This document shows positions 5,481 through 44,930 of a stretch of 64,000 nucleotides of DNA, piece by piece. The notes under the pieces are model-generated. The model saw only the letters and a program-made list of their open reading frames with translations, searched no databases and was not told where the DNA came from. A program made the position numbers and the translations under genes. Each line of letters begins with the position of its first letter. The stretch's first letter is position 1. The DNA comes from a phage. Location of the stretch: sequence record NC_111505.1; one strand, 5' to 3'.

Positions 5481-5756
5481 CAATAGTTCAGGTAGGTCGT
5501 TAAGCTACCCCGCACCATTACGTGCATAGCCATACGTTTTCACGTAGGATCGGACCATCTCATATTCCTATGATAAGCAACCACAGGAATCCTCCCATTT
5601 CGACCGCACTTGCTGGTCTACTTCCTTTCGGAATGGCCTCTGAGCGTTCGCTCTTTTGAGCGCTTCGTTGCGGATTACCTTGCCATAAGGTTTAGGCTTC
5701 CCGCAGTTAAAGAGGTTATTCGACATAGATTACTCTATGAAGCCACAATGTTATTT
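5481..5756 (-). ncRNA. candidate group I self-splicing intron (276 nt, no ORF) in the DNA polymerase gene
   Basis: exon 1 ends in U (CAU His); in-frame UAA three codons into the intron; guide-like UGUGG can pair with CCAU|A giving a G.U at the splice site; UGCGGGAA (P-like) can pair with AAUCCGCA (Q-like); hairpins with GUAA and GAAA loops; last intron nt is G; splicing rebuilds YYH|DEYQLQV. Confidence 0.6.
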
Positions 5757-8700
5757 ATGGTAATAAATAATACGACGAACACCTTCATCGTACCACCCAC
5801 GCTTCACCATTTGGTGGTGCATGAGTATCCCAACTAAGTCACACAACGATGCACCACCATTTTGTTGGTATGCATTAAGTAAAGAGTGTTTAGATCGAGT
5901 CCAGATGGCATGACCATCAAAAGAGTAGATAAACTTCTTACCTGTTGCTTCCCAGAATTTCTCCAGATCCTCTTTGCGCCCCTTAAGACCAGGGTTGGCA
6001 TCCCAAAGCGCATCGATTACCTTTTGCCCTAACTCTGGGGAGATATCCAGCATGTCTGCAACTTTATCTTTTTGTGCCCCGTACATAACACCGTACGTGA
6101 CAGGCTTACCATCGTTACGGGAAATCTCCTTGCCTGCTACAGAAGAGTAAGCTTTGGCGTTATTACAGTTACCGCACACTGCCACTTTACCATTCCTTCT
6201 CACAATGATTGCTCCAGAAGGGACGGTAACGCAATAAACCAAAGAACCACTCACCTCGACAGACTCTTTAGATAGTGTCAGCAACCCTGCTCTCTGTTTG
6301 CTACCAATCGTGATTCTGTGCTGTACGGAACGACCTTTTTTGTGAATCGCCACCGTATTATTCCGTAAACCACACTGAGTAGCCAGCGCAGACACAACCT
6401 CTACAGATTTCTTCCTGCACTCGGCCTGAGAGTAGTAGGCAACTTTTCCACCTTCGGAAGATACCCACCCGTCCCAGTTAGATAAAGAAGCTATAAACAG
6501 GTTTTTAGATTCTTTATCAAGGTCCATCAGGTTGTAGGTGAAATCCTTATTGCTGTCCAAAAACTCAAATACCCAGGACGGAACGTGGAATTGGAACCTT
6601 CTCGCCAGTAAGCCCCCTTTTGTGGTTTTCCCGCCCTGCTCTACATAACTAAGGCTTAGAGCAGAAAAAGTATCTAAAAGCGTTGCAACTTTTCTGCCCT
6701 TCCCGACCTGAATCCTGCACACGATGCTGCCGTCCTTATTTGTATGCAAGTGTCCATCATCGTGAATAGCAATAAGCAAATTAATCTGGGCAGGAGATAA
6801 GGTTGTATTCCCATAAAACTCTGCCGCATGGATAAACCTTCTTCCTGAATTAGACCCTTTACCTGCTTTCAGGTCTTTTGCCAAATCTTCAAACAATTTA
6901 TTGCTTCTGTGATCCACGGTCAGCATCCTGTGTTGATCTGTAACCATAAAATCCACACCGCTGTTGTGGAAATGATACATATCCCCACAATAACCACGCT
7001 TAACGTAATTTAATGGTGTAACAAGGTTCATCGACGAGGTGTTGTGATCGTACTGGAACACTTGTGTTCCCGGATCAAGATCTTCAAACCTCACCCACCC
7101 TTTCTCCGTGAGAATTTGTGTATCTCCTGAATAACAGTGTGCATCGCCGTTACTTACAACATCATAATACAAGCCGTTGTCGAACTCAAAGGCACCCCAA
7201 GCCCCGATAAGCTGCTCTAAGTTGGACCCGTCAATACCGATCTCAAAGTATCCTGGAGGAACGCCCCACAGACTACGCATCTCTTTACCCATAACCACTT
7301 TAGGAGATGGTTTAGGCATGTTTGCACAAATACTGTGTTTCTGTCTGGAAGTGTTTGTCAATCCAGAACTTTTAGCAGGAAGCTTGTGGTCAATCTTCAG
7401 ACGTGGATGATTAAGAAGACCAGTATCAACCTTATCCTCCTTGATTGGATCAAGTACCGATCTACGGTTTCGCAAGGATAACCACAAGACGATATCTTTA
7501 GCCATCTCTCCGTTCAACTTTTCAAGATTCGGACATAGGTGTCCAAACGTATCTTTCAGTTGCGGAGAAGTAATAAGCGCTCTGGCTTTTCTACGTATCT
7601 TCCCAAACACTTCCTTTTTAATCCTTTCTGAGTTAGGGAAGCTTCGGAACTTGTGCACGGTTGTCTGAAACTTAGCATCAGTTTTGTTCCAGAAGTTGAT
7701 AATTAGGTCACAATACTCTGACTCTAAAAGCTCGTCCATATATGCATATACTCGTGCATCAACATCAGCATCAGGCAGAGCTTTCTTCTTGCTGTCCTTG
7801 GTTACATCTTTAGTTCTCCACATTGTTGGGAGCCAACCAGCGCTGATCAAATATCGCTTAATATCGTCCTGGTTGCTGATCTTCATAGGTATCTTGCAGT
7901 CAGGCATCCGCTTCTGCTGCAGATCACTTATTGCCTGATCCATTAGTTCTTTAGGTAAAGGATGTGGTGTCGAGGTACCTTTAATATACCCCCTTAAGAA
8001 ATCAGCCATCTTATCGGGGTCTTTGCAGCCCATCTCTTCACACCATTTTATCCCCATTTTGCTGACATCTCCTGTGGAGGTAAAGGCTCGCTTAGGTGGG
8101 GCTTTGAATTCTAAAGCACTCATGTCCACAGGATAGCCAAGCTTGTCTTTTAACCATTTCCAACCGTTATTAGAGATTGTCCCATCTTGGTTAAACGGCT
8201 TTTCAGGGAACTTAGGCCGCTGAGACATTGATAGCTCTTTTAGAGGAAGTTGTGGTTCAACACGATCAGCGATCTCTTTCATCCACGCATCGCAGCGGTC
8301 ACGTAAAGCAATAGCCCCATCTATGTCGAAATACACACCCTGTCGAGCCTGCAGCTCCATCAGGAAATGCTGCAGCATGCCTCGGCGTAATGCATTCTTC
8401 CAGGTGATCTTCTTGAAGCCTTTCGGCTTCTCTTTGGCAGGATCGTACATAAAGTTCTGCATGTCAGATTTGCCGTAGAATACACCTTTTGATTCTGCTA
8501 CCAACTCCTTCCAGAGCAACTCCTGGATGATAACGTCCTCGAACACACGATCCACATACTTCCACAGCGGAAGCTCACGCCAGTCATCGATTTGAACTTT
8601 CTGGTTACCAAGGGCATAGCCCCATGCCATAAGGCCATGAGGCCCAACAGGTTGCATTTTCTTGGTAACTGGATTGAATACTGCGTCCGGACAACCTTTT

Positions 8701-19184: not shown

Positions 19185-20369
19185 TCAAGCTTTAGCTAAA
19201 ATGGCGCTAAACTCTTCACCAAACTCTTTTACAATCTTCATCAGGTTTGGGTATGCTTTGATCAGCTGAGCAACGATCTTGTCCCGGCCTTTACCAATAA
19301 GTAAGGCATTTCCTAGGGCGTTGGGTTTCATCATCGCCATAAAGACTGAGAATACAAAGTCTCGGTTCTCATCCTTGAAATTTTCCCAAAGGAAATCAAG
19401 GAAGTTTGCCACGCAGCTAACAAGATCTTCGTCTGAGACACTTGCATTTTCCATCATATTCCGAATAGCAATACAACCTTCAGACCCAAGAATCCACAAA
19501 ATATCTGGCTGCTTAGGACCTACATACTCTTTGCAACCCCCTGCCATAATCCGACCGATTTCTGGCAAGTTTCGTTTCTTGGTGTGGTAGGTCCAGATTT
19601 CTACCGCTGCAGTGTGACCAATAGCACCTTGCAGAAGAACACGAGCCATAGCGTCAGAAATAATACCGCTGTCAAAATCGTGCAGGATGTCAGATGCAGC
19701 AACCCAAGATCGCGGTGTAGCAAAAGATGGACAATTAATCTCAGCCATAGCCTCATAATTATCGATAGCTGATGGAACTCTTTTCAGATATCCAATTACA
19801 GAGGAATGCACACCATTAAGGAATGCGTAGTCCTCAATAAATACCTCTGCACTGCTTGTAACTTCTACAATGATAAAGCGGTTAGCCAGAGGGGCTTCGA
19901 GCGCTGAAAGAACAGCACCATCCGTAGCACGGTTACCTGCAGCTACAAAAACAGAGCCCTTAGGAAATGCATAGGTGCCGCACTTGTGGTCGAGCATAAT
20001 TTGCATTGCAACCTTCTGCAGGTAGTTATCTGCATGAGTAAGCTCATCCAGAAAGATAATTCCGCTCCAGTCCGAGTCTGCAGGCCAAAATTCTGGAATT
20101 GCAAACACTGTGCGTGTAGTTCCATCTGCCTCTACAGGGATAGGTAGTCCAGACAAGTCAGCAGGATCTTTATCTGACAGCCGCACGTCAACCAGGTTGT
20201 CATCTCGCTCACCGAACATATTATCAGCAATCTGCTTCATCACCTGGCTCTTCCCCACACCCATCGGTCCTAAAATCAGGACAGATCGGTTATGACGCTG
20301 GGCAAATTGAATAATAGCTGGCAACTCGCGGACAGTGATTTGACCACTTTCGAATACGTTTCTTGACAT
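19185..20369 (-). CDS. MoxR-like AAA+ ATPase (CbbQ/CobS-like)
   Basis: Walker A GPMGVGKSQ; Walker B IIFLDELTHA; 394 aa. Confidence 0.7.
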   Translation of the reverse strand: MSRNVFESGQITVRELPAIIQFAQRHNRSVLILGPMGVGKSQVMKQIADNMFGERDDNLVDVRLSDKDPADLSGLPIPVEADGTTRTVFAIPEFWPADSDWSGIIFLDELTHADNYLQKVAMQIMLDHKCGTYAFPKGSVFVAAGNRATDGAVLSALEAPLANRFIIVEVTSSAEVFIEDYAFLNGVHSSVIGYLKRVPSAIDNYEAMAEINCPSFATPRSWVAASDILHDFDSGIISDAMARVLLQGAIGHTAAVEIWTYHTKKRNLPEIGRIMAGGCKEYVGPKQPDILWILGSEGCIAIRNMMENASVSDEDLVSCVANFLDFLWENFKDENRDFVFSVFMAMMKPNALGNALLIGKGRDKIVAQLIKAYPNLMKIVKEFGEEFSAILAKA

Positions 20370-21969: not shown

Positions 21970-22865
21970 ATCTCCGCGTAAATTAAACTGGAATCAGTAT
22001 ACTTCTTTAACGGGTAAATATCCTGTCCATAGATGCCGTCATTAAACACCTCATCTACCCAAAGGCTACACTTATATCCCATCATCTCTAAAACACCCAT
22101 CTCTTCTTCGGTAAACTTATCACCGCTCTTGCAAGATGTCAACACCTCATTCTGTACTCTTGCTACCTCGAAGCGGTTATTGGCAATATCACTATTGGCA
22201 ATCAAATACTCACCTAAAGGGTGTGCAGCATTAAAGATGCACAGTGGACGGTTGACGTAATAGTCCCCCGGTGTATAAAAATTGTTGAGATCCTTCACCA
22301 GAACATTCTTATCAGTCACTTCATTTATAACATCATGCATATCACACATCTTTATATGTTTGAGGATTCCATCCCCCATCACAAAATAAAAACTTGCTGA
22401 GACACTCTCGGCATAGATCTTACTAGATCCATTGTAGTTGTATTTTACGCGAATGCTTACAGGGGTTTTGCCTGTCGCGTTAGCCATCATCCAAAGGAAC
22501 GGAAGTTCAAACTTCTCCTCTGAGGAAACAAAAGGTGAAGTTGCCAGAGATCGGAAACCACCAGAGAAGTTGAAAGTTACAGAGCCGCTCCGGCGATATG
22601 ATACCGCATATTCTACTTTTATATCGACATAGCCGTTGGAGTAAGTGTGGCCTCCATTATCCAGATATGTCCACTTATCAGATCCGGATACCAACCTACG
22701 CTCAATCACCTTCATTACTACAGGAATTAGCGGGTTGGTACAAACCGATTTTGAAGTAGCTTTATCATCCAAAGCCTCGTAAATTGCAGAAAGGATATCG
22801 CCTGCTGAGAGATTGGTTGTGATATCTTGTTTCCACCGAGTGCTAAAGCTGTTAAGATTTGCCAT
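21966..22865 (-). CDS. hypothetical protein
   Basis: start at internal ATG (MANLNSF) with AGGAG upstream; first gene of the minus-strand early block. Confidence 0.5.
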   Translation of the reverse strand: MANLNSFSTRWKQDITTNLSAGDILSAIYEALDDKATSKSVCTNPLIPVVMKVIERRLVSGSDKWTYLDNGGHTYSNGYVDIKVEYAVSYRRSGSVTFNFSGGFRSLATSPFVSSEEKFELPFLWMMANATGKTPVSIRVKYNYNGSSKIYAESVSASFYFVMGDGILKHIKMCDMHDVINEVTDKNVLVKDLNNFYTPGDYYVNRPLCIFNAAHPLGEYLIANSDIANNRFEVARVQNEVLTSCKSGDKFTEEEMGVLEMMGYKCSLWVDEVFNDGIYGQDIYPLKKYTDSSLIYAEI

Positions 22866-22905
22866 GATTAAGTGCTCCTGTGTTCGTTTTCTTTCGAATG
22901 GGTGC

Positions 22906-22934
22906 ACTATATCGTGGATTTAGAGTAAAGTCAA
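22906..22934 (-). promoter_or_regulatory. sigma70-like promoter (TTGACT-17-TATAGT)
   Basis: minus-strand -35 and -10 with 17-nt spacer, about 35 nt upstream of ATG 22865, in the divergent intergenic region. Confidence 0.5.
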
Positions 22935-22947
22935 CACGTTTTTGAGG

Positions 22948-22976
22948 TTGACATCTGTTGAGGCACTTGATAAGAT
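22948..22976 (+). promoter_or_regulatory. sigma70-like promoter (TTGACA-17-TAAGAT)
   Basis: perfect -35 hexamer, 17-nt spacer, 4/6 -10; drives the plus-strand island. Confidence 0.5.
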
Positions 22977-23007
22977 TTCTTCACCTACAGAGCACAAGAG
23001 ACAACTC

Positions 23008-23997
23008 ATGAATCTTGAAAAATATTATACACCAGAAGAGTTAGAGCGCCTGCTCAAAAAATACAGACGCAAACAAAATAATGCACGGAAACGAGATATA
23101 GAGTTCAACCTGTCATGGGAAGAATACCTCCTATTTGGTAAAAAACTTTTAGGAGAGGGGGTGTGCGACTATACCCTTATACCTTTCGACATGCACACAG
23201 ATGAAAACGGACTGGGAAATCCTTTCTACCCCTCCCTAGAGCGGATAGATGATGAAGGTCCTTATGCTGTTGATAATTGTTGTGTGGTGGGATTGAGATG
23301 CAACTCTCTAAAGGACTGTCTGGTAGATAAAAAGACCGCAGTCTTGATTAAAGACAAAACTGATCGAAAAATTGTCCAGCAGATGATGCTCCACCTGAGC
23401 GAAGAGCGTATGGAGAAATTGAAAGGTGATTACACTTTTGAAGATTTCATCTTGCAATATGGAACGGAAGAGGATAAACTGGCACTCTTTGACGAAGAAT
23501 GGGAGGAAGATATGTCACCAATGCAGGATTTTAAAAACTTCATGGCTAATCGTGGAGCCAACAAGCACATTTCTGACATCGTAAATGAGCCTGTAACAGA
23601 AGAGATTGAAGAAATGATGCAACAGGATCACGAAGAGGAAAAAGAGCCTCAAAAGGTCGAAGAAGAGCTTACAGAAGAGGTTCCTGCACTGCCTGACGAT
23701 GTTGAGATTGCTAAAGCCTATACTTTCTATTGCCAGACGTTCTACGATGCAGGCATGAAAGTCGATCTGTCATTCAGCCAATTTAAGAGCACGTACATTC
23801 GAAAATGCTGTGCTTTAACTGGCGAGCGTTTCGGGGCCGGACTTAAACCGTTATTAGTGACCGACTGGAATAAAGGTTTCACCAAAGGTAACTTTATGGT
23901 AGTATCTCCGATCATGGAGAAGGCTATGACAGACCTTATGAAGACCACTCGCATGACAATGACCGAGTTGGCTGGTATTTTCAAGCACGTTAAATAA
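23008..23997 (+). CDS. hypothetical protein with internal repeat module and long acidic tract
   Basis: start at ATG 23008 (track start is TTG); two related modules (RKRDIEFNLSWEEY...C.YT and VDLSFSQFKSTYIRKCCALTGERF) flank a D/E-rich stretch; first gene after the promoter. Confidence 0.5.
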   Translation: MNLEKYYTPEELERLLKKYRRKQNNARKRDIEFNLSWEEYLLFGKKLLGEGVCDYTLIPFDMHTDENGLGNPFYPSLERIDDEGPYAVDNCCVVGLRCNSLKDCLVDKKTAVLIKDKTDRKIVQQMMLHLSEERMEKLKGDYTFEDFILQYGTEEDKLALFDEEWEEDMSPMQDFKNFMANRGANKHISDIVNEPVTEEIEEMMQQDHEEEKEPQKVEEELTEEVPALPDDVEIAKAYTFYCQTFYDAGMKVDLSFSQFKSTYIRKCCALTGERFGAGLKPLLVTDWNKGFTKGNFMVVSPIMEKAMTDLMKTTRMTMTELAGIFKHVK

Positions 23998-24001
23998 TGA
24001 C

Positions 24002-24018
24002 AGGGGCCAATGGCCCCT
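24002..24018 (+). promoter_or_regulatory. intergenic hairpin (AGGGGCC-AAT-GGCCCCT)
   Basis: perfect 7-bp inverted repeat right after the stop at 23997; the same stem is reused in the 29.75-kb terminator. Confidence 0.35.
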
Positions 24019-24030
24019 TCTGGAGTTTTA

Positions 24031-25491
24031 ATGGATAGCAGAAGTTCAGAAATCATTGCCGCACAAAAAGATGACGCCTTGCGAATGCTGCAGGCAGCAC
24101 GTATGTATCTTCTTGAAAAACTGCCGTTTTATGGCACACTGTTGTCAGGGTTGCAGTTCGTAGAAAACCACACATGGTGCTCCACCATGGCAACAGATCA
24201 TAAACGCATTTATTACAGTCCTGAGTTCGTTATGGGATTGGCTGATGAGCGCAAAACCATTCTTGAGGCATCTTTAACTGACAAGCAGTTTGAGATGGCT
24301 GAGGTTTTCTATTCCCCCAAATCTGTGAAAGAGGTGGCATTTCTTCTATCACATGAGGTGGGGCATATTATCTGTGATCATCTGGTCCGTGGCAAAAGCT
24401 TTGAGCCGGAACTGTTCAATATTGCCTGTGATCATGTTATCAACACAGGTCTTGTGGTTGACTTTAGCAAGCCCCCTTGTGTTTTCTTCCCGAAGGGGAA
24501 AAGCACTACGTTTGTAAAAGGTAAGCCTTTTGGCTTTTTAGCTAGTTGCTACTGTGACATGAGGTTCCATGGATGGATTGCTGAGAACGTCTATGCTGTT
24601 CTTGATAAGCAAAGAGATCAGAATAGCGGTAAAAGTAAGAACGGTAAAGGCGAGAACTCTCAAGGAGATAAACGACAAACCGATGATCACATGAGTGGTA
24701 ACGGTGGCACTAGTGATGATCTTGGAAAGGCTATGGGGTATGATCAGCCACAGCCAGTGATCAGTCAATCTGATAAAGATCAAGCCATGCAGGACTCTGG
24801 TGACATGTTGGAAGCAGCAATGCAGGCTTCCGGAGGTAGTTGCCCTGAGGCTGTGCGCGAGTTTGTCAAAAACAGAGGTAAGCCTGTAATCAATTATATA
24901 GACATCATTAAGCAACGTATGTTGTCCAAACGAAAGGCTGAACTAACCTACAGAAAACCAGGTCGCCGATCTGGGTCTTTGACCAGCACAATGCGAAAAG
25001 TTGGAGCTATAAACAAGAATCAGCACGTTGTTGTTCCTGGCCGTAATCCGGAAAACACTATAGATATTGTGGTGGCTTTAGACGTTTCTGGGTCGATCTC
25101 GCAAAGAACTTTAAAGAAAATGTTCAATGAGATCACTGGGTTGTGCAATCTGTATAAAGAGTTCAAGGTTACGATGTTCTGTTGGTCAACTGAGGTTGGA
25201 GAGGTTAAAGTATACACTCGCGGGAACATCGACGAGATGATCAACTATGAGGTCCACTCAACATGGGGAACAACAGCCGCTTGCGTGTTCGAGTATCTGG
25301 ACGCTAACATACCAAATGCAAAAGATGTCATCGTCCTGACCGACCTATACTTTGAGCATAACTTTGAACAAAAGGCTGTTGACAACAAGTGGAAAAAGTA
25401 CGATACTTTATGGGTTCTCACCGAAGGGTATAATAAAAATTATATCCCTAGCTTTGGGAAAACTGTAGAATTGATCGAGTACGCTAAATAA
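24031..25491 (+). CDS. VWA-domain protein with N-terminal HExxH metallopeptidase-like domain
   Basis: HEVGHIICDH zinc-binding-like motif; MIDAS-like VVALDVSGSIS; start set at ATG 24031 (GGAG upstream) after the hairpin. Confidence 0.65.
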   Translation: MDSRSSEIIAAQKDDALRMLQAARMYLLEKLPFYGTLLSGLQFVENHTWCSTMATDHKRIYYSPEFVMGLADERKTILEASLTDKQFEMAEVFYSPKSVKEVAFLLSHEVGHIICDHLVRGKSFEPELFNIACDHVINTGLVVDFSKPPCVFFPKGKSTTFVKGKPFGFLASCYCDMRFHGWIAENVYAVLDKQRDQNSGKSKNGKGENSQGDKRQTDDHMSGNGGTSDDLGKAMGYDQPQPVISQSDKDQAMQDSGDMLEAAMQASGGSCPEAVREFVKNRGKPVINYIDIIKQRMLSKRKAELTYRKPGRRSGSLTSTMRKVGAINKNQHVVVPGRNPENTIDIVVALDVSGSISQRTLKKMFNEITGLCNLYKEFKVTMFCWSTEVGEVKVYTRGNIDEMINYEVHSTWGTTAACVFEYLDANIPNAKDVIVLTDLYFEHNFEQKAVDNKWKKYDTLWVLTEGYNKNYIPSFGKTVELIEYAK

Positions 25492-25497
25492 GAGAGG

Positions 25498-25767
25498 ATG
25501 TTATTTATGGCAACAGAAGTAGTAATTAAAGCTGAACGCCCAGTTAAAAAAGCTATCAACACGTTTCCTGTAGGAACTATTGTGAGCATGATTACAGAGT
25601 CAGGTCGTGTATCTACACTGCTAATCGTGAAATCTGCATGCTCATCTTGTGTGTGGGCATATGATCTTGACGAGAAAGAACTGAAAGATTTTGTTGGAGA
25701 GCTGAAAGCAACAGAACTTGACGCTCGTATCGAAGTATTTGGTGAAACTATGGAGGAAGAGCAATGA
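25498..25767 (+). CDS. hypothetical protein
   Basis: 89-aa ORF. Confidence 0.45.
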   Translation: MLFMATEVVIKAERPVKKAINTFPVGTIVSMITESGRVSTLLIVKSACSSCVWAYDLDEKELKDFVGELKATELDARIEVFGETMEEEQ

Positions 25768-26027
25768 CCACAAAAATCACCATTGCAGAACCGAAAGCTA
25801 ACACGCAGCCTATCGAAAAGTTTAAATGCGGTGAGGTGGTAACATTCACACCTGACAATGAAGATGCCAAGATTTTCGCCATGGTTACAGCCGAGTGGAT
25901 GTGTGACAACACCACACAGGTTCTGCGTTTTGACACCTATCTTACAGATGAAATCAGGAACGACAAGATCGTGACTGGTGTAGATACTGAGATTGTTTTC
26001 TACAAGAGCTTCGTGGAGGGTTTCTAA
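25764..26027 (+). CDS. hypothetical protein
   Basis: 87-aa ORF, ATGA overlap with upstream gene. Confidence 0.45.
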   Translation: MTTKITIAEPKANTQPIEKFKCGEVVTFTPDNEDAKIFAMVTAEWMCDNTTQVLRFDTYLTDEIRNDKIVTGVDTEIVFYKSFVEGF

Positions 26028-26028
26028 T

Positions 26029-26265
26029 ATGGCAAGAATTCGTAAATTGTTCAACAATCAAACTGTGAAAGATTTTGAACCCGGAGAGATTCTGTATGTT
26101 CATGATGCAGATGACGAAGGAGAAGATCTTGTTATGCTACTAGGGCATGCTGCTGAGGACGGATGCATCCAGGCTGTTTTTCTTGAAACAGCTATGGTGC
26201 ACTGGATAGAGCTGGACCTGAAAGCACGAAAACCTAAAGCAGAGATCCTGATTTACGAAGATTAA
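26029..26265 (+). CDS. hypothetical protein
   Basis: start at internal ATG (MARIRKLF) with GGAGGG upstream. Confidence 0.45.
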   Translation: MARIRKLFNNQTVKDFEPGEILYVHDADDEGEDLVMLLGHAAEDGCIQAVFLETAMVHWIELDLKARKPKAEILIYED

Positions 26266-26281
26266 CAAAAAGGAGAGAGCA

Positions 26282-26731
26282 GTGTTGAGCAAACGTGAAT
26301 GCGACAGCATTAGCCTAAATTCTTATAAGAAACAATGGTTTGGGGTAGAAGTTTGCCGACTACGGCTCGGCTCCTACCTGAACTTCGTTTATTACGAGAG
26401 TGACAGTCGTATCGTTTCTTATGAAGTGTTTTACACTAAGAACACCTTCGAGCTGCGACGTAAGGTGGATGGCGGGAGAGCTACCACTCAGAATAACTGG
26501 GAAACTATTCTGCCTCCAGATGTTATAGGAAGCCCCCTGAATGTATCTGAAGATGAAAATCTTATGGTTCATGCTATGATGGGACTTGACAGCTTAGAGC
26601 TGGCGATCTATGATATGTCCATCGAAGCGGTTAAGCTGGACTACATCGAAAACACCTTAGAGGAAGGTATCAAGAAGTTTCTCGGTGAGAAATTGAAAGC
26701 CCACTTTCATAAGGAGCTATACCTGTTATGA
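26282..26731 (+). CDS. hypothetical protein
   Basis: 149-aa ORF. Confidence 0.45.
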   Translation: MLSKRECDSISLNSYKKQWFGVEVCRLRLGSYLNFVYYESDSRIVSYEVFYTKNTFELRRKVDGGRATTQNNWETILPPDVIGSPLNVSEDENLMVHAMMGLDSLELAIYDMSIEAVKLDYIENTLEEGIKKFLGEKLKAHFHKELYLL

Positions 26732-26973
26732 AGACCCGTAAAGAACGTAACAAGATTTTACCTTGTGCTCTCGAACACATGATGAAGTGCAGATCTATCT
26801 GGCACTCTGCCAAGGAGGGGCAGCATGTGGTTGTAGTTAGTGATAATGCCAACCCATTCGGTGATTATGTCACCATGATGACTCCATATATCCGCGACGG
26901 TGTTGTGGAAGTGGTTCCTTATAGCGGTCTGCATGAGAGGCATTTTGAAAGCACTTTGTTAGTGGAGCTATAA
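26728..26973 (+). CDS. hypothetical protein
   Basis: 81-aa ORF overlapping the upstream stop. Confidence 0.45.
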   Translation: MKTRKERNKILPCALEHMMKCRSIWHSAKEGQHVVVVSDNANPFGDYVTMMTPYIRDGVVEVVPYSGLHERHFESTLLVEL

Positions 26974-26975
26974 TC

Positions 26976-27542
26976 ATGGCGGTCAATGTGGCTTACAACA
27001 CAGGAAAGCTTGACAGAGATATTGGGTGTCTTGTCCTTTCAGATACAGAAGAGTATTGGGGTTATGGGCTGCTGTCAGACCCACACCCTAGCAACCTTGT
27101 ATCAACAGTGCTATATCGCTACGACCCTGTACCAACGGTGCACGACAAAGATATTCACGACCTTAGGGTAAAGTGTCTGGAAGATCTTCTGAACAATGGC
27201 TGCAACGATCTGCAGGTAGCCAAGGAGAAGCTTACAAACATCCACAAGGAGGAAGTGATGAGCACCCTCAGTAAGAGGTCAGTGCACAAAAAGATGATGC
27301 TGAACTTTGCAATGGGTATCTACATGGACGGATATAAAGGTGGGGATCCGATCCTCAAACTTCGCTGCCCAACACTGTGGGAAAGAGTGGTTGACAGTAA
27401 GGACGGTACTGCTCTTCTTGAGCTCCACACTTCGGGTTGGATATGGAGGTATGTGGACGGATACCCTCTGTGGGCATGTGGGGCTGGGGAGTTTGTTGAC
27501 AGACCTAGCGCGGTGGTGGACTTGCTATTGCAATTTGAATAA
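26976..27542 (+). CDS. hypothetical protein
   Basis: 188-aa ORF. Confidence 0.5.
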   Translation: MAVNVAYNTGKLDRDIGCLVLSDTEEYWGYGLLSDPHPSNLVSTVLYRYDPVPTVHDKDIHDLRVKCLEDLLNNGCNDLQVAKEKLTNIHKEEVMSTLSKRSVHKKMMLNFAMGIYMDGYKGGDPILKLRCPTLWERVVDSKDGTALLELHTSGWIWRYVDGYPLWACGAGEFVDRPSAVVDLLLQFE

Positions 27543-27597
27543 AGAGTTAGTTATAAGGTATTCATGCACCTATCAACAATAAACAGGAGAGACTGAG

Positions 27598-27873
27598 ATG
27601 ACGAAAGAAGAGGCCGACGTATTAGACTTTGCATCAGAAGCCACACAGGAGGCTTTGGTGTTAGCGTGGAAAATGAACCAGCGTGCTGCAGAATGCAACC
27701 GCCGCATCAATGAGATTCTTGGCATGCCTATGTATGATTTCACCATGCATGCCGGAGAGATTCCTGAGCTTACTGCTGAAATGGCGGATCTTGACAACAA
27801 GATCGATATTATCCTGAAGACAGCGGAAACAACTCACCAAACCGCCCGTAAATTTATCAACGAGAAGGTGTGA
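27598..27873 (+). CDS. hypothetical protein
   Basis: 91-aa ORF. Confidence 0.45.
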   Translation: MTKEEADVLDFASEATQEALVLAWKMNQRAAECNRRINEILGMPMYDFTMHAGEIPELTAEMADLDNKIDIILKTAETTHQTARKFINEKV

Positions 27874-28349
27874 ATATGGACTACAGCTACTGCGGGGAAG
27901 AAGTACCTTTTAACTACAGCAATCTTACCACGAGCAATCCATATGAGACTCGCCACGGCACACACATCATTGCTATTGACTTTGATGGAACGTTTAATGC
28001 AAGCCCTTTCATCTTCTCCCGCCTTATCAAGGACCTGAAGAAGGAGGGGTGGACAGTCTATCTTGTGACTTTTCGGTTCATCACTCAAGACAACGTGGAC
28101 ATCGAATACTGGCGCAAGGAGTTAGATGTTGGAGTGTTTTATACTGGAGGTGTTCAGAAGGCCGCTTATCTGGCGCAGTTTGATATCTACCCAGACATCT
28201 GGGTTGATGATTCTCCAGCTTGCATTCCAGCCAAGAATCAGTTAGAGTTTGCAATGAAGGAAATTGAGTATAAGTCTGACGCTAAGCGTAACGGATGGCC
28301 CTTTATTATTGAAGATTACCCAGATCCTGAACCGGAGAAAGAGCCATGA
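27870..28349 (+). CDS. HAD-superfamily phosphatase-like protein
   Basis: motif I IIAIDFDGTF and distal IWVDDSP. Confidence 0.5.
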   Translation: MNMDYSYCGEEVPFNYSNLTTSNPYETRHGTHIIAIDFDGTFNASPFIFSRLIKDLKKEGWTVYLVTFRFITQDNVDIEYWRKELDVGVFYTGGVQKAAYLAQFDIYPDIWVDDSPACIPAKNQLEFAMKEIEYKSDAKRNGWPFIIEDYPDPEPEKEP

Positions 28350-28516
28350 AACGAAGATACCATTACTTGATGTGGAAGTTATACCATGGTGCTGCTAAAG
28401 CTTATCGCGCCGTGTTTGGTAATGACAATCACTACATTATGTTACACCTTACCGCCATTAAGCATCACAATGAGTGGATTCGTGCAATCGTAATAGGTGA
28501 CAAAGACTTTAAGTAA
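28346..28516 (+). CDS. candidate small protein (about 56 aa), not in ORF track
   Basis: ATG overlaps the upstream stop (ATGA); MKRRYHYLMWKLYHG...; coordinates approximate. Confidence 0.35.
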   Translation: MKRRYHYLMWKLYHGAAKAYRAVFGNDNHYIMLHLTAIKHHNEWIRAIVIGDKDFK

Positions 28517-28567
28517 GGTATGCCTCAAAAACGTAATAGTGTGGATTTCTAAATGGAGACTGATTAA

Positions 28568-28948
28568 ATGTGCAAGTGTAAATCCTATAATTGGAAAGTT
28601 AAAGGTGCCAAGCATCCAAATGTTATCGTTGATGTGCCTAAAAAGCTCCGTGACTGCAAAAAACGTGTGTGCCTTGATAAGTGCATGGCTAAGCCTATCA
28701 TGAGTCTATGGGCGGCAGGATTGAAAACTATAAACTGCTGCTGTGGTCATAACAAAGATGCTCCAAGCATCATTATCCCAGAGGATGCAGACCCTAAAGC
28801 TTATGCCAAAATACTGACCCGCTACCCCAGCACCTTTCTGATCGGAAAATGGTGTCACGATGAACTTCAATGGTGGATAGCATACGGCAGCATAGGTACT
28901 GCTGTTGGCTTTCCAGCTTTGTCAGAGCGCTACGTCAAAGTGTCATAA
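28568..28948 (+). CDS. hypothetical Cys-rich protein
   Basis: 126 aa; several Cys clusters (CKCK, INCCCGH) suggest metal binding. Confidence 0.45.
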   Translation: MCKCKSYNWKVKGAKHPNVIVDVPKKLRDCKKRVCLDKCMAKPIMSLWAAGLKTINCCCGHNKDAPSIIIPEDADPKAYAKILTRYPSTFLIGKWCHDELQWWIAYGSIGTAVGFPALSERYVKVS

Positions 28949-29052
28949 TCGATTTTAAGGCCTCAAACGAGGCCTGTGCCTTCATAAACTTCCTACCTAT
29001 GTGCGATTACCCTTCTGAATAAAATACCCTCTCAAATTGCTTAAAATTAAGC

Positions 29053-29081
29053 TTGACACTAACACCAGATTTATATATGAT
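29053..29081 (+). promoter_or_regulatory. sigma70-like promoter (TTGACA-17-TATGAT)
   Basis: consensus -35, 17-nt spacer, 5/6 -10, about 30 nt upstream of GAGGAG and ATG 29112. Confidence 0.5.
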
Positions 29082-29111
29082 TATCTCACCAACCCAACAG
29101 AGGAGATTGTC

Positions 29112-29519
29112 ATGGATAATCTTGCAAGTGTAAACGTAGAAATTGTTAAACTAAAGTTCTTGGGCTTTCGAGACCCTAATTCTCTAACAGCTATACTGAT
29201 GGATACCCACTTCACACCGGGGAAAGAGTACACTGCCTTCCGTTATACTCACGGAGATCACGAATCGGCCTATAGTGTGAATACAAACCTCGGTGAGGGA
29301 TATTTCATCAGAGATATCACAGATCACTTGTGGGGTATGTGGGAATTGGTGGGAGAAGAGAATAAATCCCTTCCCAAAGAGATTTGGGTGCACACCTTCC
29401 ACACAGGGAAGTTTGGTGGAACGGAGCATAAATCTATCCACTATGATGAAGGAAGTGCCATCAAGCAACAAGCTGTGCTTGGCGGATCTGTAGAAAAATT
29501 TGTTAAATGCGAGGACTGA
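29112..29519 (+). CDS. hypothetical protein
   Basis: start at internal ATG (MDNLASV) downstream of the promoter; track ORF begins upstream of it. Confidence 0.45.
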   Translation: MDNLASVNVEIVKLKFLGFRDPNSLTAILMDTHFTPGKEYTAFRYTHGDHESAYSVNTNLGEGYFIRDITDHLWGMWELVGEENKSLPKEIWVHTFHTGKFGGTEHKSIHYDEGSAIKQQAVLGGSVEKFVKCED

Positions 29520-29522
29520 GAA

Positions 29523-29723
29523 ATGGCTGATTTTTGTAAAGATTGCTCTGAAGAGTTGTTTGGCTTTGACTGCAAAGATTTGGAAGGTCTGATCACTGAG
29601 GATCAGTGGAAGGAAGGCTATGCAGCACCTGTTATTTGTGAAGGTTGTGGCTATACCTATGTTGACCATAAAGGTAAGCGCGTCAAGCCGTCTGAAGATG
29701 GGGCATGTTGGGAGTATTACTAA
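29523..29723 (+). CDS. small zinc-ribbon-like protein
   Basis: 66 aa; CKDC...CEGCGY Cys pairs. Confidence 0.45.
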   Translation: MADFCKDCSEELFGFDCKDLEGLITEDQWKEGYAAPVICEGCGYTYVDHKGKRVKPSEDGACWEYY

Positions 29724-29732
29724 CTATAAAAA

Positions 29733-29760
29733 GAAAGGGGCCGTTTGGCCCCTTTTTTAT
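29733..29760. terminator. bidirectional rho-independent terminator between convergent blocks
   Basis: AGGGGCC-GTTT-GGCCCCT flanked by A-run upstream and T-run downstream. Confidence 0.65.
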
Positions 29761-29771
29761 TTACCCCCTTG

Positions 29772-32700
29772 TTAACGAGAAAAGGTTGCGTAGGCTTCTA
29801 GACGATACTGCTGGTCACCAGGGAACATAACACCTATAGAGGCTGTCCCTAGAATCCTGCCTTCCTTTCCAGACTCCATTCTGAACCCTACCCATCCTGA
29901 ACTCCTTGCAGCATCGATGTTGTCTCTATACCCGAAAGTGGCAAGATCGTCAACACCAGCCCCAAACAGCAACTGAAGCTGACTTCTCGGAAGCCCTATA
30001 ATTTCAGGAATATACGCACCAAAGTACACCATCTGCCCTACCTTAGGACCGCTGCCGTACTCCATCGGCTTGCTTGTAGAGAAAGTCTTCATACCAGAAG
30101 TCCCTGCCGGATTAGGATATGCCCCGTTTGTTGCTGTACCTATCCACATTCTCCACTGTGGTGCCATCTGTTTGACAGTAAAAGATGTTGAAGACGTTTT
30201 GCGCCCTGCATCATCTGTAACTACAAACTTTATAGTGACATTCCCAGTAGCTTTAAATGTTACCAGCCCTGTGGTAGCATCCACTGTTGCAATGTTGGTA
30301 TTACTACTTTCCCAAGTCTTTCTGATTCCTGGCACATTGGAAGGGGTAATAGAAGGTTCCTGCATCTGCAGTTTACCACCTACAATCCCTATCCCGTTTC
30401 CTGGATTATACAACGCACCAACCTCGTCTACAATGTTACCTGCCTTGAGGCTGTACTTTTTAGAGAAGTTGTAAGTGCCGTTATATGTGTGTGTCCCTGA
30501 GAAGGTTACATCTGCTTTTCCGTAAGAGATGCAAACCAAAGCATACTTCCTGTCAGGCAACGGTGCCCCAGTTTCTGGGTGAGTTTTACCCACCTGAAAC
30601 ACACTCGGGTCAGTGGAGTCTTGGCTATCACTAACTGAGTTTGGGCCACCCATCAGTTGTGACAAGCAATTCCTTACCCATGTCCAGTTATTATCGCTGG
30701 AGAAGTCCACAGTTAAATCAAACACAACCCACTCATTTGGCTTCCACACAGGTGTTGCAATGGACTTGCCTACACCGCCTCCTTGGAGTGTTGCCGACTG
30801 TTCAGTGATCAGGGCCGCGTAGGCCAGAGTTCCTAAACTCAGAGTTTGGCTTGCTGTCCTCACTACCTTAGAATCAGCATCTGTGAAGTTGTTGATGATC
30901 TGGAATGTGCCATAAGTGTTTTTACAGGTAATTCTGGCGTTCAGCGTGTCAATCTTCCTCACATCTGCCATAGCAGTGTTAGACACAGAGAAGTCAGAAG
31001 CTTTAGCTGAGTTTGCCGCAACAGCAGGATCAACGTTAAGAGTTGCGTTGAACTGACAAGCTGGGGTAACCAGCAGCTTGTTATCACCTATTTGCTTCCA
31101 TGAAACACTTTGAACAGGGAGATTCCATTTAATACCTGAGAAAACTTTAGCAACCCTTGGCCCCAGAGCTCCAGTCCTGGTGTCTTTACAGCACATGGAC
31201 ATGGTGATCGTTGACGGAGTGGCCTGACCAAACAATTGCTGTGCTTTTGCAGAGGACATGGTGTAGAAATTGTCCTTAACAAACTCATCAGCCGCCAATG
31301 ATCCGTCAGATCTCCACCATTGCACCTGGTACCCTGTCTTATCCCAGCCACCGACCTGCTTCAGGTCCTCCCAGGAGATTTCCAGATCCCCAGTGGTAGG
31401 GTTGATTGCAGCAGTTCCTGGTGTTCCAGAGGACCATAATGGGATATCGAACCATGCTGGTTTAACAGATTGTACTGCGTTCGGTCCTATTGCAGCAGCA
31501 AGTTGCTGACCCATCAACACACGAGAATCTTTTACCAAGCCCCATTCAATCATGGACCCAGAGTAGCCTTCTTTCTTATAGGCCGAAGATCCGTTCAAAT
31601 GGATAAGCCTGCTGCAGTCGAAACCATACGCCCCGCCACCGTTAGGATCTGCAAAGTTAGTTATGATTCTATCCCTTATATTTTTCCATGCCCTGCCTCC
31701 AATCTCGTAGTCATGGTCATAACATCTCTGCAGCGTTGTCCAGCAAATGATTGCCATTCTTCTGCCACCAGTAAACCCGAAAGCGCCGTCATTCAACTCT
31801 TTCCACAGATAGCAGTTAGTTGCCCACATAGCTCTGTGGATATTGAACCAGTTTATAGACTTAGCAGAATTGTCCCACTGAGTTCCCGGTAATTCAGGCC
31901 ACACTGCATTAACCAACATGTCTTCTGTTCCTGCATCAACTAAGAACCCTCTCACCTTTTTACCCATACCTGCCCTGTCTTTAGCAATCCAATTGCCAAA
32001 CAGTCTCAGTTTTGGACCATAAACGACATCCTCTGGGTGCTCAAAAGAAACATACTTTAAGTAGATTGTTGGGTCACCGTAGGTGCCATCACAAACACTT
32101 TTGTGCATGTTTTCGCCAAGATCTAGACGAAGCCCTGTCACCACTTTAGACGTGTCGGTGAATTTGTCTGTTAAATCAAATTCATACCACCACCATCCAC
32201 CACCAAGCATAAATTTCTTGCATCGAGCATTGTCTGTATCAGATATTCTCTTATCCCCTGCAAAAGGTGAATCAGCAAACTGATAATGCAGAGCAGTCTC
32301 GAATAAATGTGTTGAGGTTCCGTTTTCTGCAAGAACTTGCTTACCTATTAAGTCGCACTTAATGATCATCACAACACGTTTGTACCCGTTTGTTACTGGA
32401 ACTTGCATAGACATGGATGTCCCATCCATGTTTGATCTCAGCACGGTCATGACGATATAAGGGTCAACGGCATTGCCCAGAGTTTCAGGACCAGGGATTA
32501 TCTTGTACTTCTTAACCTGCCCCATAAACCTGTCACTGGCGTAAGTTGCAGCCTCGAAGCAAGATCCTCCATTAGGTAGTTCGCCAGGACCCCAGAAAAA
32601 TGCGCCATAACAGTTATAAAACCACTTGTTAGGATCGTATTTGTTCTTGAAGGTCTGAACCTCGTTAGCCTGTTTTGTCAAGAAAACCTGAGTATCTGTG

Positions 32701-34442
32701 AAGATTGCAGGATTCACTCTTGCCTGTCGATCAGCATATCCAGGTTGGTTAAACCACTGATTGCAAGAATAGTCCCGCATATAGTCATAATCAGAGTATT
32801 TATTGTTTGCATCCTCGTTCCAACACATATTAAGGTTGGTGCCGCCCATGCACACAATATATTCTTCAACGTATTTATCACTTCGGGTGGGAATACCTAC
32901 GAACCATCTATTAACAGGTTCGTTCCAAGCAGTACGCTCATCCTTAACGCAGATTGCAATCCAGTCATGTGTCCCTGTTTTCTTGCACACATCGCGCTTC
33001 ATACCGTAGTAGAATTCTTTAGTATTTGGCTCAGGTGCACTTATCAGGTAACTCCACGCCTGGTCTGCATATGTTCCGTTGGTGCGAGGGTCATGATCAA
33101 AGGCATACATGATGATTCTTTCTCCACCAAGATGTTCACCAAGGGTGACTTTGATGTTCACATCCCCGTAACCGTTGCGAACAACATCCATATTATCAAT
33201 AGAAATGCCTCTAGGAGTGTAGGCAATTTTCAGTGAGTTATCCTCACTAGTGCCACCAAGGGTGATCCCAATATTGTTTGTCGTCCCGTCAGCATATCTT
33301 ACTGTAGCTTCCCAGCGTATTCCGAAATATCCTACGTCATGGCTGACAATTTTTAATGTACGAGCACCAGAGTTAGGTTTTCCAGGATCAGGCCAAGGGT
33401 TTGGGTGTTCGTGAACCGTCAACGATGTCCCGTTTTGTTCGTTGACCTGCAACATTTTACCACCCCTTCCGTTTGGGTTGAACTCCCATAGGGCCTGTGT
33501 CTGCACCAAGTTATCATAGGTATTCCGTCGCTGACTATAAATCTCTTGGGTAACATCATAAGTTACTGATCCAGCATCCATTCTATGGAGTCTGACCATA
33601 TACGATGTATCCCCTTCTACTGCAGGCTGGGCCGCATTTAGTCCAAAGTATACAGTGTCATTAACATGGAACTGTTTGTTTCTACCGGCAGTATGCCATT
33701 TACCATCAGACGGATACGCCGGAACAATAGTGTTCCAGTTCAAAGTCCTTGTTGTGTGGGTCCTGCCTGTGCCATGTTTGTCATGATAGGTTATTTTTAC
33801 AGAGTACAGACCACGTCTGTTAACATTCCTGTTATACTGGGTAACAATAACTTCGTTGGCCCCACCGTGGTTCCAGTTAGTAGAGAATTGGTAATTCGCA
33901 TCTGTAACAACCGTGCCTGCAGCATTTACCAGTTCAATCTTGTCAATAATGAACGTAGCACCCTCTGGCTGAGGCTTTAATTTCATCTTGACCGTATCAC
34001 CAATGTAAATATTGCTAACGCTGCTAACACCGTTAACGTCGAAAATATCATCAACACCCCAACTGTCTACTGGGACATTTTTATACCAATTCTCAGGGAC
34101 CTCCGTGAACCCTTGGCTATTAAGTCTGCCGCCAAACAGGTTATTAGATCCTGCAAAACTTCCCCTCGGGATGCCTGACCACCAAAGTTTGCCATTAACA
34201 ACAGTAAAGGTTCCTAAAAAAACCTTCTCTGTGAATGCCTTGGAAATAAACACTTTCTGTCCAGCTAACTGGGAGGCGTTGCTCAACGTATTTGGCTGTG
34301 GCAAGAGCTTGATAGTGGATAAAATTGGCCCTAGGGCTATTGTTTGCAGATTGTGCGCCAATATCATTGCAAAGGTTGCGAGAGAATCCACGGTACTGCT
34401 TAGTACCATTGTTGAAGAAAATGCCACTTGTGCCGTACCCAC
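29772..34442 (-). CDS. giant tail-associated protein (1556 aa) with Ig-like (Big_2-type) domain; true 5' end uncertain
   Basis: longest ORF from track; C-terminal NIATVDATTGLVTFKATGNVTIKFVVTDDAG resembles bacterial Ig-like domain; first about 75 codons overlap the upstream ORF in another frame and look low-complexity. Confidence 0.55.
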   Translation of the reverse strand: MGTAQVAFSSTMVLSSTVDSLATFAMILAHNLQTIALGPILSTIKLLPQPNTLSNASQLAGQKVFISKAFTEKVFLGTFTVVNGKLWWSGIPRGSFAGSNNLFGGRLNSQGFTEVPENWYKNVPVDSWGVDDIFDVNGVSSVSNIYIGDTVKMKLKPQPEGATFIIDKIELVNAAGTVVTDANYQFSTNWNHGGANEVIVTQYNRNVNRRGLYSVKITYHDKHGTGRTHTTRTLNWNTIVPAYPSDGKWHTAGRNKQFHVNDTVYFGLNAAQPAVEGDTSYMVRLHRMDAGSVTYDVTQEIYSQRRNTYDNLVQTQALWEFNPNGRGGKMLQVNEQNGTSLTVHEHPNPWPDPGKPNSGARTLKIVSHDVGYFGIRWEATVRYADGTTNNIGITLGGTSEDNSLKIAYTPRGISIDNMDVVRNGYGDVNIKVTLGEHLGGERIIMYAFDHDPRTNGTYADQAWSYLISAPEPNTKEFYYGMKRDVCKKTGTHDWIAICVKDERTAWNEPVNRWFVGIPTRSDKYVEEYIVCMGGTNLNMCWNEDANNKYSDYDYMRDYSCNQWFNQPGYADRQARVNPAIFTDTQVFLTKQANEVQTFKNKYDPNKWFYNCYGAFFWGPGELPNGGSCFEAATYASDRFMGQVKKYKIIPGPETLGNAVDPYIVMTVLRSNMDGTSMSMQVPVTNGYKRVVMIIKCDLIGKQVLAENGTSTHLFETALHYQFADSPFAGDKRISDTDNARCKKFMLGGGWWWYEFDLTDKFTDTSKVVTGLRLDLGENMHKSVCDGTYGDPTIYLKYVSFEHPEDVVYGPKLRLFGNWIAKDRAGMGKKVRGFLVDAGTEDMLVNAVWPELPGTQWDNSAKSINWFNIHRAMWATNCYLWKELNDGAFGFTGGRRMAIICWTTLQRCYDHDYEIGGRAWKNIRDRIITNFADPNGGGAYGFDCSRLIHLNGSSAYKKEGYSGSMIEWGLVKDSRVLMGQQLAAAIGPNAVQSVKPAWFDIPLWSSGTPGTAAINPTTGDLEISWEDLKQVGGWDKTGYQVQWWRSDGSLAADEFVKDNFYTMSSAKAQQLFGQATPSTITMSMCCKDTRTGALGPRVAKVFSGIKWNLPVQSVSWKQIGDNKLLVTPACQFNATLNVDPAVAANSAKASDFSVSNTAMADVRKIDTLNARITCKNTYGTFQIINNFTDADSKVVRTASQTLSLGTLAYAALITEQSATLQGGGVGKSIATPVWKPNEWVVFDLTVDFSSDNNWTWVRNCLSQLMGGPNSVSDSQDSTDPSVFQVGKTHPETGAPLPDRKYALVCISYGKADVTFSGTHTYNGTYNFSKKYSLKAGNIVDEVGALYNPGNGIGIVGGKLQMQEPSITPSNVPGIRKTWESSNTNIATVDATTGLVTFKATGNVTIKFVVTDDAGRKTSSTSFTVKQMAPQWRMWIGTATNGAYPNPAGTSGMKTFSTSKPMEYGSGPKVGQMVYFGAYIPEIIGLPRSQLQLLFGAGVDDLATFGYRDNIDAARSSGWVGFRMESGKEGRILGTASIGVMFPGDQQYRLEAYATFSR

Positions 34443-44861: not shown

Positions 44862-44930
44862 GTCACTCCTCCGGTATGAAAATCTCTACAAGGTATTTTA
44901 CCAAATTTTGTAACAATAGTCAATCTGAGC

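Follow-up and report, generated by a model that had tools for sequence, protein, structure and literature searches.

Gene layout and control elements of the plus-strand unit

The DNA analysed here, called the window, is a 64,000-nucleotide (nt) stretch of a phage genome (record NC_111505.1), and this work concerns a block of plus-strand genes at 22,866 to 29,760 within it, together with the promoters and the terminator that would direct its transcription. Fourteen tightly packed open reading frames (ORFs), named g1 to g14, run on the plus strand from 23008 to 29723 among minus-strand genes, and they are backed by the annotation of relatives. The spacing between most of these genes is only -4 to +6 nt, and GGAG-like sequences are found ahead of them. 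An earlier note on this DNA, made from the letters alone, had described 13 mostly small genes; the number of conserved ORFs is 14. The switch to the plus strand, also part of that description, is borne out by the GC skew, which is positive at 23-30 kb only and negative in all other 1-kb bins of the window.

A megablast search with positions 22500-30000 matched 121 phage records, and the 113 of these that cover at least 80% of the query are all rV5-like Vequintavirus. The closest record is vB_EcoM_SYGMH1, with 97.4% identity. Judged by these matches, the window is from an rV5-like Vequintavirus, a phage of Escherichia coli. Sixteen records labelled "Campylobacter phage", with Campylobacter jejuni as host (MG0656xx), are 93% identical to the region, as if their host label were wrong or the records contaminated.

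Annotated relatives show the block to be the counterpart of rV5 genes 11-26, with a unit containing rIIA, the endolysin gene and a MoxR ATPase to its left and a large Ig-like tail-fibre gene to its right. For rV5, Kropinski et al. 2013 (PMC3606486) put forward four transcription units, one of them genes 11-26; they saw the GC skew switch at 6425 and about 13700, and named gp11 a Srd homolog. Their Table S4 lists the promoters P010, P011 and P025 and the terminator t026/t027, the sequences of which agree with the elements found in the window. The likeness to rV5 therefore extends over gene content and order, the P010/P011 pair, P025, t026/t027, the GC-skew switch and the Srd assignment, and in the 3' part of the block the identity to rV5 is about 93%. 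The unit, with its promoters and terminator, and the Srd assignment were already known, having been published for rV5 in 2013. The differences are that the window comes from a separate isolate, nearest to SYGMH1, that the -10 hexamer of P025 is TAGGAT in rV5 and TATGAT in the window, that a promoter-like site inside g2 and a hairpin between g1 and g2 are unlisted in the rV5 paper, and that the rV5 annotation has two additional overlapping ORFs. The same paper gives a second plus-strand unit, genes 82-163, and the idea of an otherwise minus-strand genome holds for the window but not for the genome.

Promoter-like sites were scored as matches out of 12 to the hexamers TTGACA and TATAAT, with a -35/-10 spacing of 16-18 nt. 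Two sigma70-like promoters lie back to back at 22.9 kb, exactly where they had been read in the earlier note. The leftward one (22934..22906, minus strand; TTGACT-17-TATAGT, 10/12) would serve the minus-strand unit beginning at the ATG at 22865 and is the equivalent of rV5 P010, whose hexamers in Table S4 are identical. The rightward one (22948..22976, plus strand; TTGACA-17-TAAGAT, 10/12 with a TG-extended -10) is the equivalent of rV5 P011, and its predicted transcription start site (TSS) at about 22983 would give g1 a leader of 25 nt. Only 13 bp separate the two -35 hexamers. In many of its database models (P0001 among them), g1 has 346 amino acids and a start within the predicted promoter (22942-23007), an extension that distant homologs do not have. 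On this comparison we corrected the likely start of g1 to 23008.

The arrangement of this control region is shared across the subfamily. All Vequintavirinae genera fetched have a divergent gap of 128-145 bp, with a leftward unit containing a MoxR-type ATPase on one side and, on the other, a rightward unit that opens with a g1 homolog, followed after 0-2 small genes by a DUF2201 gene homologous to g2. A perfect TTGACA is present at the matching place of the g1 promoter in Seunavirus, Avunavirus, Mydovirus, Henunavirus and relatives from IMG/VR, in gaps that are otherwise unalignable. This -35 hexamer is thus kept in five Vequintavirinae genera whose g1 proteins are just 35-40% identical. The corresponding -10 elements across genera are GATAAT, GATACT with TG, CATAAT with TG, or TAGTGT with TG. 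The leftward promoter reads TTGACT-17-TATTCT in relatives of about 65% identity (loci L006-L009), and in other genera it is weaker or undetected.

A further sigma70-like promoter, TTGACA-17-TATGAT (11/12), is found at 29053..29081 on the plus strand, again exactly as the earlier note had it at 29.05 kb. It sits in a 163-nt gap ahead of g13, 31 nt upstream of that gene, and is the equivalent of rV5 P025. Both hexamers are invariant in four Vequintavirus sequences in which five or six spacer positions vary, and the counterpart in one relative (L004) is a full consensus of 12/12. The unit is closed at 29731..29760 by a GC-rich hairpin with a U-run on both strands (stem GAAAGGGGCC/GGCCCCUUUUUU, loop GUUU), equivalent to rV5 t026/t027. 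The plus-strand fold has an energy of -19.7 kcal/mol (z -3.8), and that of the minus strand has -18.0 kcal/mol (z -2.6). By these features it is a bidirectional intrinsic terminator, predicted to end both the plus-strand unit and the convergent minus-strand tail-fibre gene at 29772-34442.

Promoter enrichment, promoter classes and the timing of transcription

A loose scan of the region at 9/12 gave no enrichment of promoter-like sites (25 against 20±4.7 expected), and strand-specific counts at 10/12 or better, compared with 100 dinucleotide shuffles, were used in its place. The sense strand of the block has 6 such sites against 0.89±1.02 expected, a number that none of the 100 shuffles reached. 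The left minus-strand unit has 18 on its sense strand against 2.7±1.7 (0/100 shuffles), whereas the late structural unit has 8 against 5.0±2.3, which is not significant, and the antisense strands are enriched in no case. Only two gaps in the block are longer than 100 nt, and each contains a strong, correctly oriented site. Among 20000 mononucleotide shuffles, the observed quality was matched in 448 (0.022) for the g1 gap and in 49 (0.0025) for the g13 gap.

That all of these hexamer matches are chance and functionless could be argued from the lack of enrichment at 9/12, and also from a site at 26945 (11/12), which we rejected as a promoter of g8 because its -10 ends 2 nt ahead of the g8 ATG and it cannot serve that gene. 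We find such an explanation scarcely credible, given the strand-specific enrichment at 10/12 or better and the position of the strongest sites in the only two long gaps, where they are conserved across genera. Strong sigma70-like sites are a real property of the block. The leftward unit is as rich in them (18 against 2.7), and they therefore do not single out the block.

The authors of the rV5 paper proposed a T4-late-like motif, TGGTAAAATA. With one mismatch or fewer allowed, the window contains 22 copies of the motif where 5.4 would be expected, and the minus strand carries 19 of these. Exact copies are found in the late unit only (44894-44903 and 50405-50414, minus strand); the left unit holds several copies, and the block has one imperfect copy, within g1. 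The late unit without significant sense-strand enrichment of sigma70-like sites, and the enrichment of TGGTAAAATA on the minus strand with near absence from the block, together support a separate late promoter class and point to at least two promoter classes in this phage.

Promoters of this kind can be compared with those of Certrevirus CB7, CR3, CR8 and CR9, of the same subfamily, in which TTGAC-type -35 and TATAAT-type -10 sequences, also described in silico, are concentrated among short hypothetical genes and were put in a "likely early" region (PMC7344957). Some sites of the window (22934, 25379) share the A-tract and TG that the Certrevirus consensus has upstream, but these are not a general feature, and for that reason we did not use them as a promoter criterion.

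Some of the sites in the block fall inside genes. A candidate internal promoter (25379..25407, plus strand; TTGACA-17-GATACT) lies within the final 110 nt of g2 and 91 nt ahead of g3. Its counterpart in the relatives L006 and L009 (about 65% identity) is a perfect 12/12, TTGACA-17-TATAAT. The spacer there has one extra codon and yet the 17 nt are kept, the -10 being drawn from other codons (Y-N there, D-T in the window). Because the spacing is kept despite the codon insertion or deletion and the -10 comes from different codons, the comparison suggests that selection acts on a promoter within g2 and not on the protein. An 11/12 site inside g6 (26586-26614, plus strand; TTGACA-17-TATGAT) is conserved within Vequintavirus only. 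Another promoter-like site, at 28674, is within g12.

A site of the same kind was met inside the g1 homolog of phages SSE121 and KB57, where a perfect 12/12 sigma70 consensus is formed by the codons for L-V-D-K and T-I-I (L010 8302-8329 and L012 8311-8338). Av-05 has a 10/12 site close by in its g1 homolog (L011 8338-8365), at another position in the protein, and in the g1 of the window L-V-D-K is encoded by other codons and the SSE121/KB57 site is absent. This site inside g1 homologs may be a genus-specific internal promoter.

From these observations, we regard the region as probably an early (pre-replicative) unit, transcribed rightward, of an rV5-like Vequintavirus. The part of this reading that had already been proposed in the earlier note, that the RNA polymerase of the host transcribes the block with sigma70, has good in silico support from the cross-genus TTGACA, the invariant hexamers at 29053, the enrichment on sense strands only and the near absence of the late motif. 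The early timing that went with it is plausible. In the course of events that we propose, unmodified host sigma70 RNA polymerase would bind the 142-bp divergent control region, where the sites are seen and their use is deduced, and would start rightward near 22983 and leftward near 22899. The rightward transcript would span 14 translationally coupled genes and would probably be reinforced by promoters in coding sequence, at 25379 and possibly at 26586. A separate promoter at 29053 would serve the variable terminal cassette, and transcription would stop at the bidirectional terminator at 29731-29760.

Several points weigh against this proposal. Our literature search for Vequintavirinae found no experimental TSS map, transcriptome or time course, and no experiments on this operon. 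The -10 of the g1 promoter matches at only 4/6 (TAAGAT) and depends on the TG extension. The internal sites are in coding sequence, where amino-acid constraint preserves bases too. The identity of g1 to T4 Srd, a comparison discussed below, is 24%, in one module only, with a different overall architecture. The authors of the rV5 paper (PMC3606486) also saw sigma70-like promoters genome-wide, near late genes too, and a sigma70-like promoter alone therefore does not fix the timing of a unit.

This last point leads to a different explanation, in which the host-polymerase promoters are real but the unit is not specifically early, being read throughout infection or belonging to a middle class, as rV5-like phages may not reprogram promoter choice. 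The rV5 authors inferred as much from the genome-wide distribution (PMC3606486), their paper does not report homologs of the T4 late-transcription factors, and some sites of 10/12 to 11/12 occur in the late unit of the window as well. On the other hand, those late-unit sites do not amount to a significant sense-strand enrichment (8 against 5.0), and TGGTAAAATA is enriched on the minus strand, with exact matches in the late unit only, and is essentially missing from the block. We consider this explanation possible but rather unlikely, and prefer the early unit.

The first two genes of the unit

The first gene, g1 (23008..23997, plus strand), is predicted to encode a Srd-like protein of 329 amino acids, in which a disordered acidic linker (residues ~165-226) connects two HNH-fold modules (residues 1-164 and 227-329). 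The long acidic tract pointed out in the earlier note is there, with up to 13 Asp/Glu per 30 residues at about residues 141-232, and the whole protein is net acidic (64 Asp/Glu against 44 Lys/Arg). PHROG matches include "decoy of host sigma70" (PHROG 4592; 9.5e-14), "Srd anti-sigma factor" (PHROG 1400; 1.8e-11) and "endonuclease VII" (1.7e-10). In BLASTP comparison with T4 Srd (NP_049634), residues 8-143 align with an E-value of 1e-7, and residues 253-299 align onto the same stretch of Srd with 2e-4. The N- and C-terminal modules also match one another in profile-profile comparison (E-value 4e-4, same motif register), and the two are probably the result of a tandem duplication.

Full-length homologs of g1, with 23-40% identity, are present in Seunavirus, Avunavirus, Mydovirus, Henunavirus and some Aeromonas and Pseudoalteromonas phages. 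In an alignment of 12 sequences, both modules are conserved and the region between them is the least conserved, and in the more distant homologs (P0022-P0026) this acidic region is very short and mostly gapped. The AlphaFold2 model agrees with this division, having two confident modules, a pLDDT of 30-50 at residues 165-172 and 182-226, and a mean of 78.9.

The modelled modules have the beta-beta-alpha-Me (HNH) fold. However, the 12-sequence alignment contains no invariant or near-invariant His and no Cys4 zinc cluster, and the conserved motif at the usual position of the HNH catalytic His is S-x-E-R-I-D. A Pfam search (E<=0.01) returned no family for g1, and hence no HNH and no Ocr match, while its profile gave noise alone against PDB sequences. 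In lacking a Pfam HNH match, an invariant His and a Cys4 cluster, g1 differs from the HNH nucleases PacI and T4 endonuclease VII, and the alignment suggests a protein without nuclease activity. The database name "HNH endonuclease" for g1 therefore fits the fold but not the catalytic His, the metal ligands or the Pfam profile, and "type II restriction endonuclease", given by one source, is unsupported. The name "anti-termination" was also met among the database names for these genes, and such names look unreliable.

The closest known protein to g1 is T4 Srd, to whose N-terminal module it is homologous in sequence; both genes are non-structural. The T4 srd gene adjoins modA and modB, among early host-takeover genes. 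Srd was first annotated as a decoy of sigma70/sigmaS, and it has been described as binding the N-terminal half of RNase E and speeding host mRNA decay (Qi et al. 2015, as related in PMC13232886 and PMC7430671). T4 Srd differs from g1 in having 248 amino acids and one such module, against 329 amino acids, two modules and an acidic disordered linker, and g1 does not reproduce its architecture, the C-terminal half of Srd being without a significant match in BLASTP. Because the identity is so low, over a single module, and the architecture is different, the case for carrying the RNase E function over from T4 Srd to g1 is weak. Most likely g1, with tandem Srd-like modules of HNH fold without the usual catalytic His, would act on host gene expression, a role suggested by homology only; as a homolog of T4 Srd, it would bind RNase E and stimulate it, a decoy of sigma factors being the older idea. 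The acidic tract is best read as a flexible linker in a Srd-like host-takeover protein.

The position of g1 had been compared in the earlier note with that of the DNA-mimic anti-restriction gene of T7. T7 Ocr (gene 0.3) is a small, fully folded acidic dimer that inhibits type I restriction enzymes by mimicking DNA, and its gene lies at the fixed leading end of the T7 DNA. Like it, g1 is the first gene after host-polymerase promoters and has an overall acidic product, and one could suppose an Ocr-like mimic placed first for production before the DNA is cut. Anti-restriction genes can moreover reside in this operon, as Av-05 has a genuine Lar-family gene at its second position. In g1, unlike Ocr, the acidity resides in a linker that is predicted to be disordered (pLDDT 30-50), shows less conservation than any other part of the protein and is mostly gapped in P0022-P0026, and the folded parts are Srd-like with an HNH fold. 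The Pfam search gave no Ocr match, the PHROG search gave no anti-restriction match but Srd, endonuclease and HNH only, and a Lar homolog is absent from the window. According to the BASEL study, on phenotypes of other phages of the group, Vequintavirinae are "exceptionally susceptible" to restriction-modification systems, and the rV5 genome has been described as circularly permuted, so that no fixed end would enter first. With a Srd homolog, a disordered and gapped acidic tract, a restriction-sensitive phage group and a permuted genome, we abandoned the comparison with T7 and hold an Ocr-like function of g1 to be very improbable. The Lar-family gene of Av-05 (L011 8798-9001) was recognized as a restriction-alleviation gene by PF14354, at 36 bits against a cutoff of 28.6, and a Lar homolog sought in the window gave none.

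Just past g1, at 24002..24018 on the plus strand, is a GC hairpin, AGGGGCC-AAT-GGCCCCT, followed by UUCU-GGAG-UUUUA-ATG. It was found in all Vequintavirus loci read, always just ahead of the GGAG and start of g2. In L006 and L009, it is GGGGGC-TTTG-GCCCCC, with a compensatory C:G to G:C swap in the stem. The stem sequence is identical to that of the terminator at the end of the block, and the hairpin has no clean U-run. It may be an attenuator of read-through or an mRNA-end hairpin. The ATG at 24010 lies in its loop and is destroyed in phage FV3, and GGAG precedes the ATG at 24031; for these reasons the start of g2 is likely to be 24031.

So defined, g2 (24031..25491, plus strand) would encode a protein of 486 amino acids with a zincin-type metallopeptidase motif (HEVGH) and a VWA-like domain (DVSGS, MIDAS-like), the two motifs having been read from the translation. 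Pfam matches are to DUF2201_N (1e-27) and DUF2201 (VWA-like; 2.8e-11), and the RefSeq/PHROG name "HNH endonuclease" is unsupported for g2. The likely partner of its product is a MoxR-type AAA+ ATPase encoded outside the block in the leftward unit (19185..20369, minus strand), with a PHROG 1297 match of 4e-110 and weak AAA/bpMoxR matches in Pfam, bpMoxR reaching 15.7 bits, below the cutoff. The rV5 counterpart, gp4, is "MoxR ATPase" by name. In every genus examined, the ATPase gene is 2.5-3.7 kb to the left of the divergent gap, and it and the g2 gene are found on opposite sides of that gap, making up a MoxR/VWA pair. The zincin peptidase with its VWA domain would presumably work with this ATPase, and the other products of the rightward unit would be small proteins.

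A bolder proposal can be built from these features. Here, g1 would represent a distinct "double Srd" class, in which a pair of HNH-fold modules, devoid of catalysis and held by a disordered acidic tether that resembles nucleic acid, grips the catalytic half of RNase E (or RNA polymerase/sigma) and redirects host RNA decay in the first minutes. The hairpin after g1 would separate the output of g1 or shield phage mRNA from the nuclease activated by g1, and the MoxR ATPase with the VWA-metallopeptidase would form an early remodelling or proteolytic machine against host proteins. We offer this as speculation and think it unlikely to hold as a whole.

The small genes and the variable 3' cassette

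The earlier note had called the block an accessory island. The part of the block that varies is its 3' end, namely g12 (28568-28948; 126 amino acids, Cys-rich, PHROG 12958), which opens a variable cassette, g13 (29112-29519; 135 amino acids, a mosaic of two PHROG segments) and g14 (29523-29723; 66 amino acids, with a Cys pair and zinc-ribbon-like), all on the plus strand; the PHROGs of g13 and g14 are 15992, 30425, 3955 and 2210. All three genes are missing from L006 and L009, where the unit ends after g11, and g12 is also absent from other genera. Within the genus, 85 of the 116 matching members keep at least 80% of the 3' part, and about 31 carry replacements or insertions.

A second hairpin, AGGCCUC-AAAC-GAGGCCU, is placed just past the g12 stop (28958..28975, plus strand). 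It folds with -13.4 kcal/mol (z -3.0), is invariant in four Vequintavirus sequences, and its stem is kept with another loop in FV3. We rejected it as a canonical terminator, as it has no U-tract. In FV3, the conserved hairpin is followed by another cassette, of two genes, which has a TTGACA site to itself (L002 12720-13426) and whose genes are annotated as similar to ORFs of the T4-like phages Phi1 and RB49. From these comparisons, the gap past this hairpin (28949-29111 in the window) is a hot spot for insertions. The terminal cassette, which has a separate promoter and shares the terminator, is the moron-like part, because it is absent in the relatives of about 65% identity, replaced in about 31 of 116 members and swapped in FV3.

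If the whole block behaved as this cassette does, being absent, replaced or swapped and having its own promoter and terminator, it would be a horizontally acquired, moron-like island. At least 80% of it is nevertheless held by 113 of the 121 records, its GC content of 0.42-0.47 equals that of the flanks, and five genera keep the arrangement in which the promoter, g1 and g2 face the MoxR unit. Acquisition of the entire block is quite improbable in our view, and the description as an accessory island was given up. By its distribution, the block taken together belongs to the core of the genus, and only the cassette g12-g14 varies.

What this analysis adds to the published description of rV5 is statistical and cross-genus support for the predicted promoters, rejection of the Ocr analogy, starts of g1 at 23008 and g2 at 24031, a g2-internal promoter candidate with compensated spacing, a hairpin between g1 and g2 with a compensatory change, the predicted two-module HNH-fold anatomy of g1, and the finding that database names of g1, g2 and g6 are unsupported. 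Its significance is mostly one of annotation quality, since the unit is already known from rV5 and the window is from a close relative. Candidates for therapy and biocontrol often come from among the rV5-like phages; for engineering payloads into them, an early promoter, once verified, and the dispensable 3' cassette (g12-g14), once cleanly mapped, would offer practical sites.

Between g2 and the cassette are nine small plus-strand genes. The first three are the small ORFans g3 (25498-25767), g4 (25764-26027), which overlaps g3, and g5 (26029-26265), which begins 1 nt after g4; they gave no Pfam match, and their PHROGs (10698, 12861, 12046) have no assigned function. The start of g6 (26282-26731) is uncertain, and the gene has homologs in L006/L009, SSE121 and Av-05. 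Its PHROG/RefSeq name, "tail protein", is unsupported, mass spectrometry of rV5 virions having detected none of the products gp11-26. After g7 (26728-26973), which overlaps g6, come g8 (26976-27542; 188 amino acids) and g9 (27598-27873; 91 amino acids), with PHROGs 12232 and 12604. The single g8 of the window corresponds to two tandem paralogs in the relatives of about 65% identity (L006 11469-12651, L009 11467-12643). The product of g10 (27870-28349) has the motifs DFDGT and VDD, which by eye resemble those of HAD phosphatases; Pfam, NCBIfam and PDB sequence searches gave no match. The next gene, g11 (28346-28516), overlaps g10, and the PHROGs of the two are 4919 and 12006. Searches of Pfam, NCBIfam and PDB sequences gave nothing for 12 of the 14 proteins of the block, and the genes common to the genera are g1, g2, g6 and g10 only.

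A repeat search found, the two hairpins aside, nothing but short pairs at chance level, and Rfam and tRNA scans of the block gave no matches. Within the left minus-strand unit, the Rfam model RF00028 matched over its full length at 5531-5766 (minus strand; 64.7 bits), as a group I catalytic intron.

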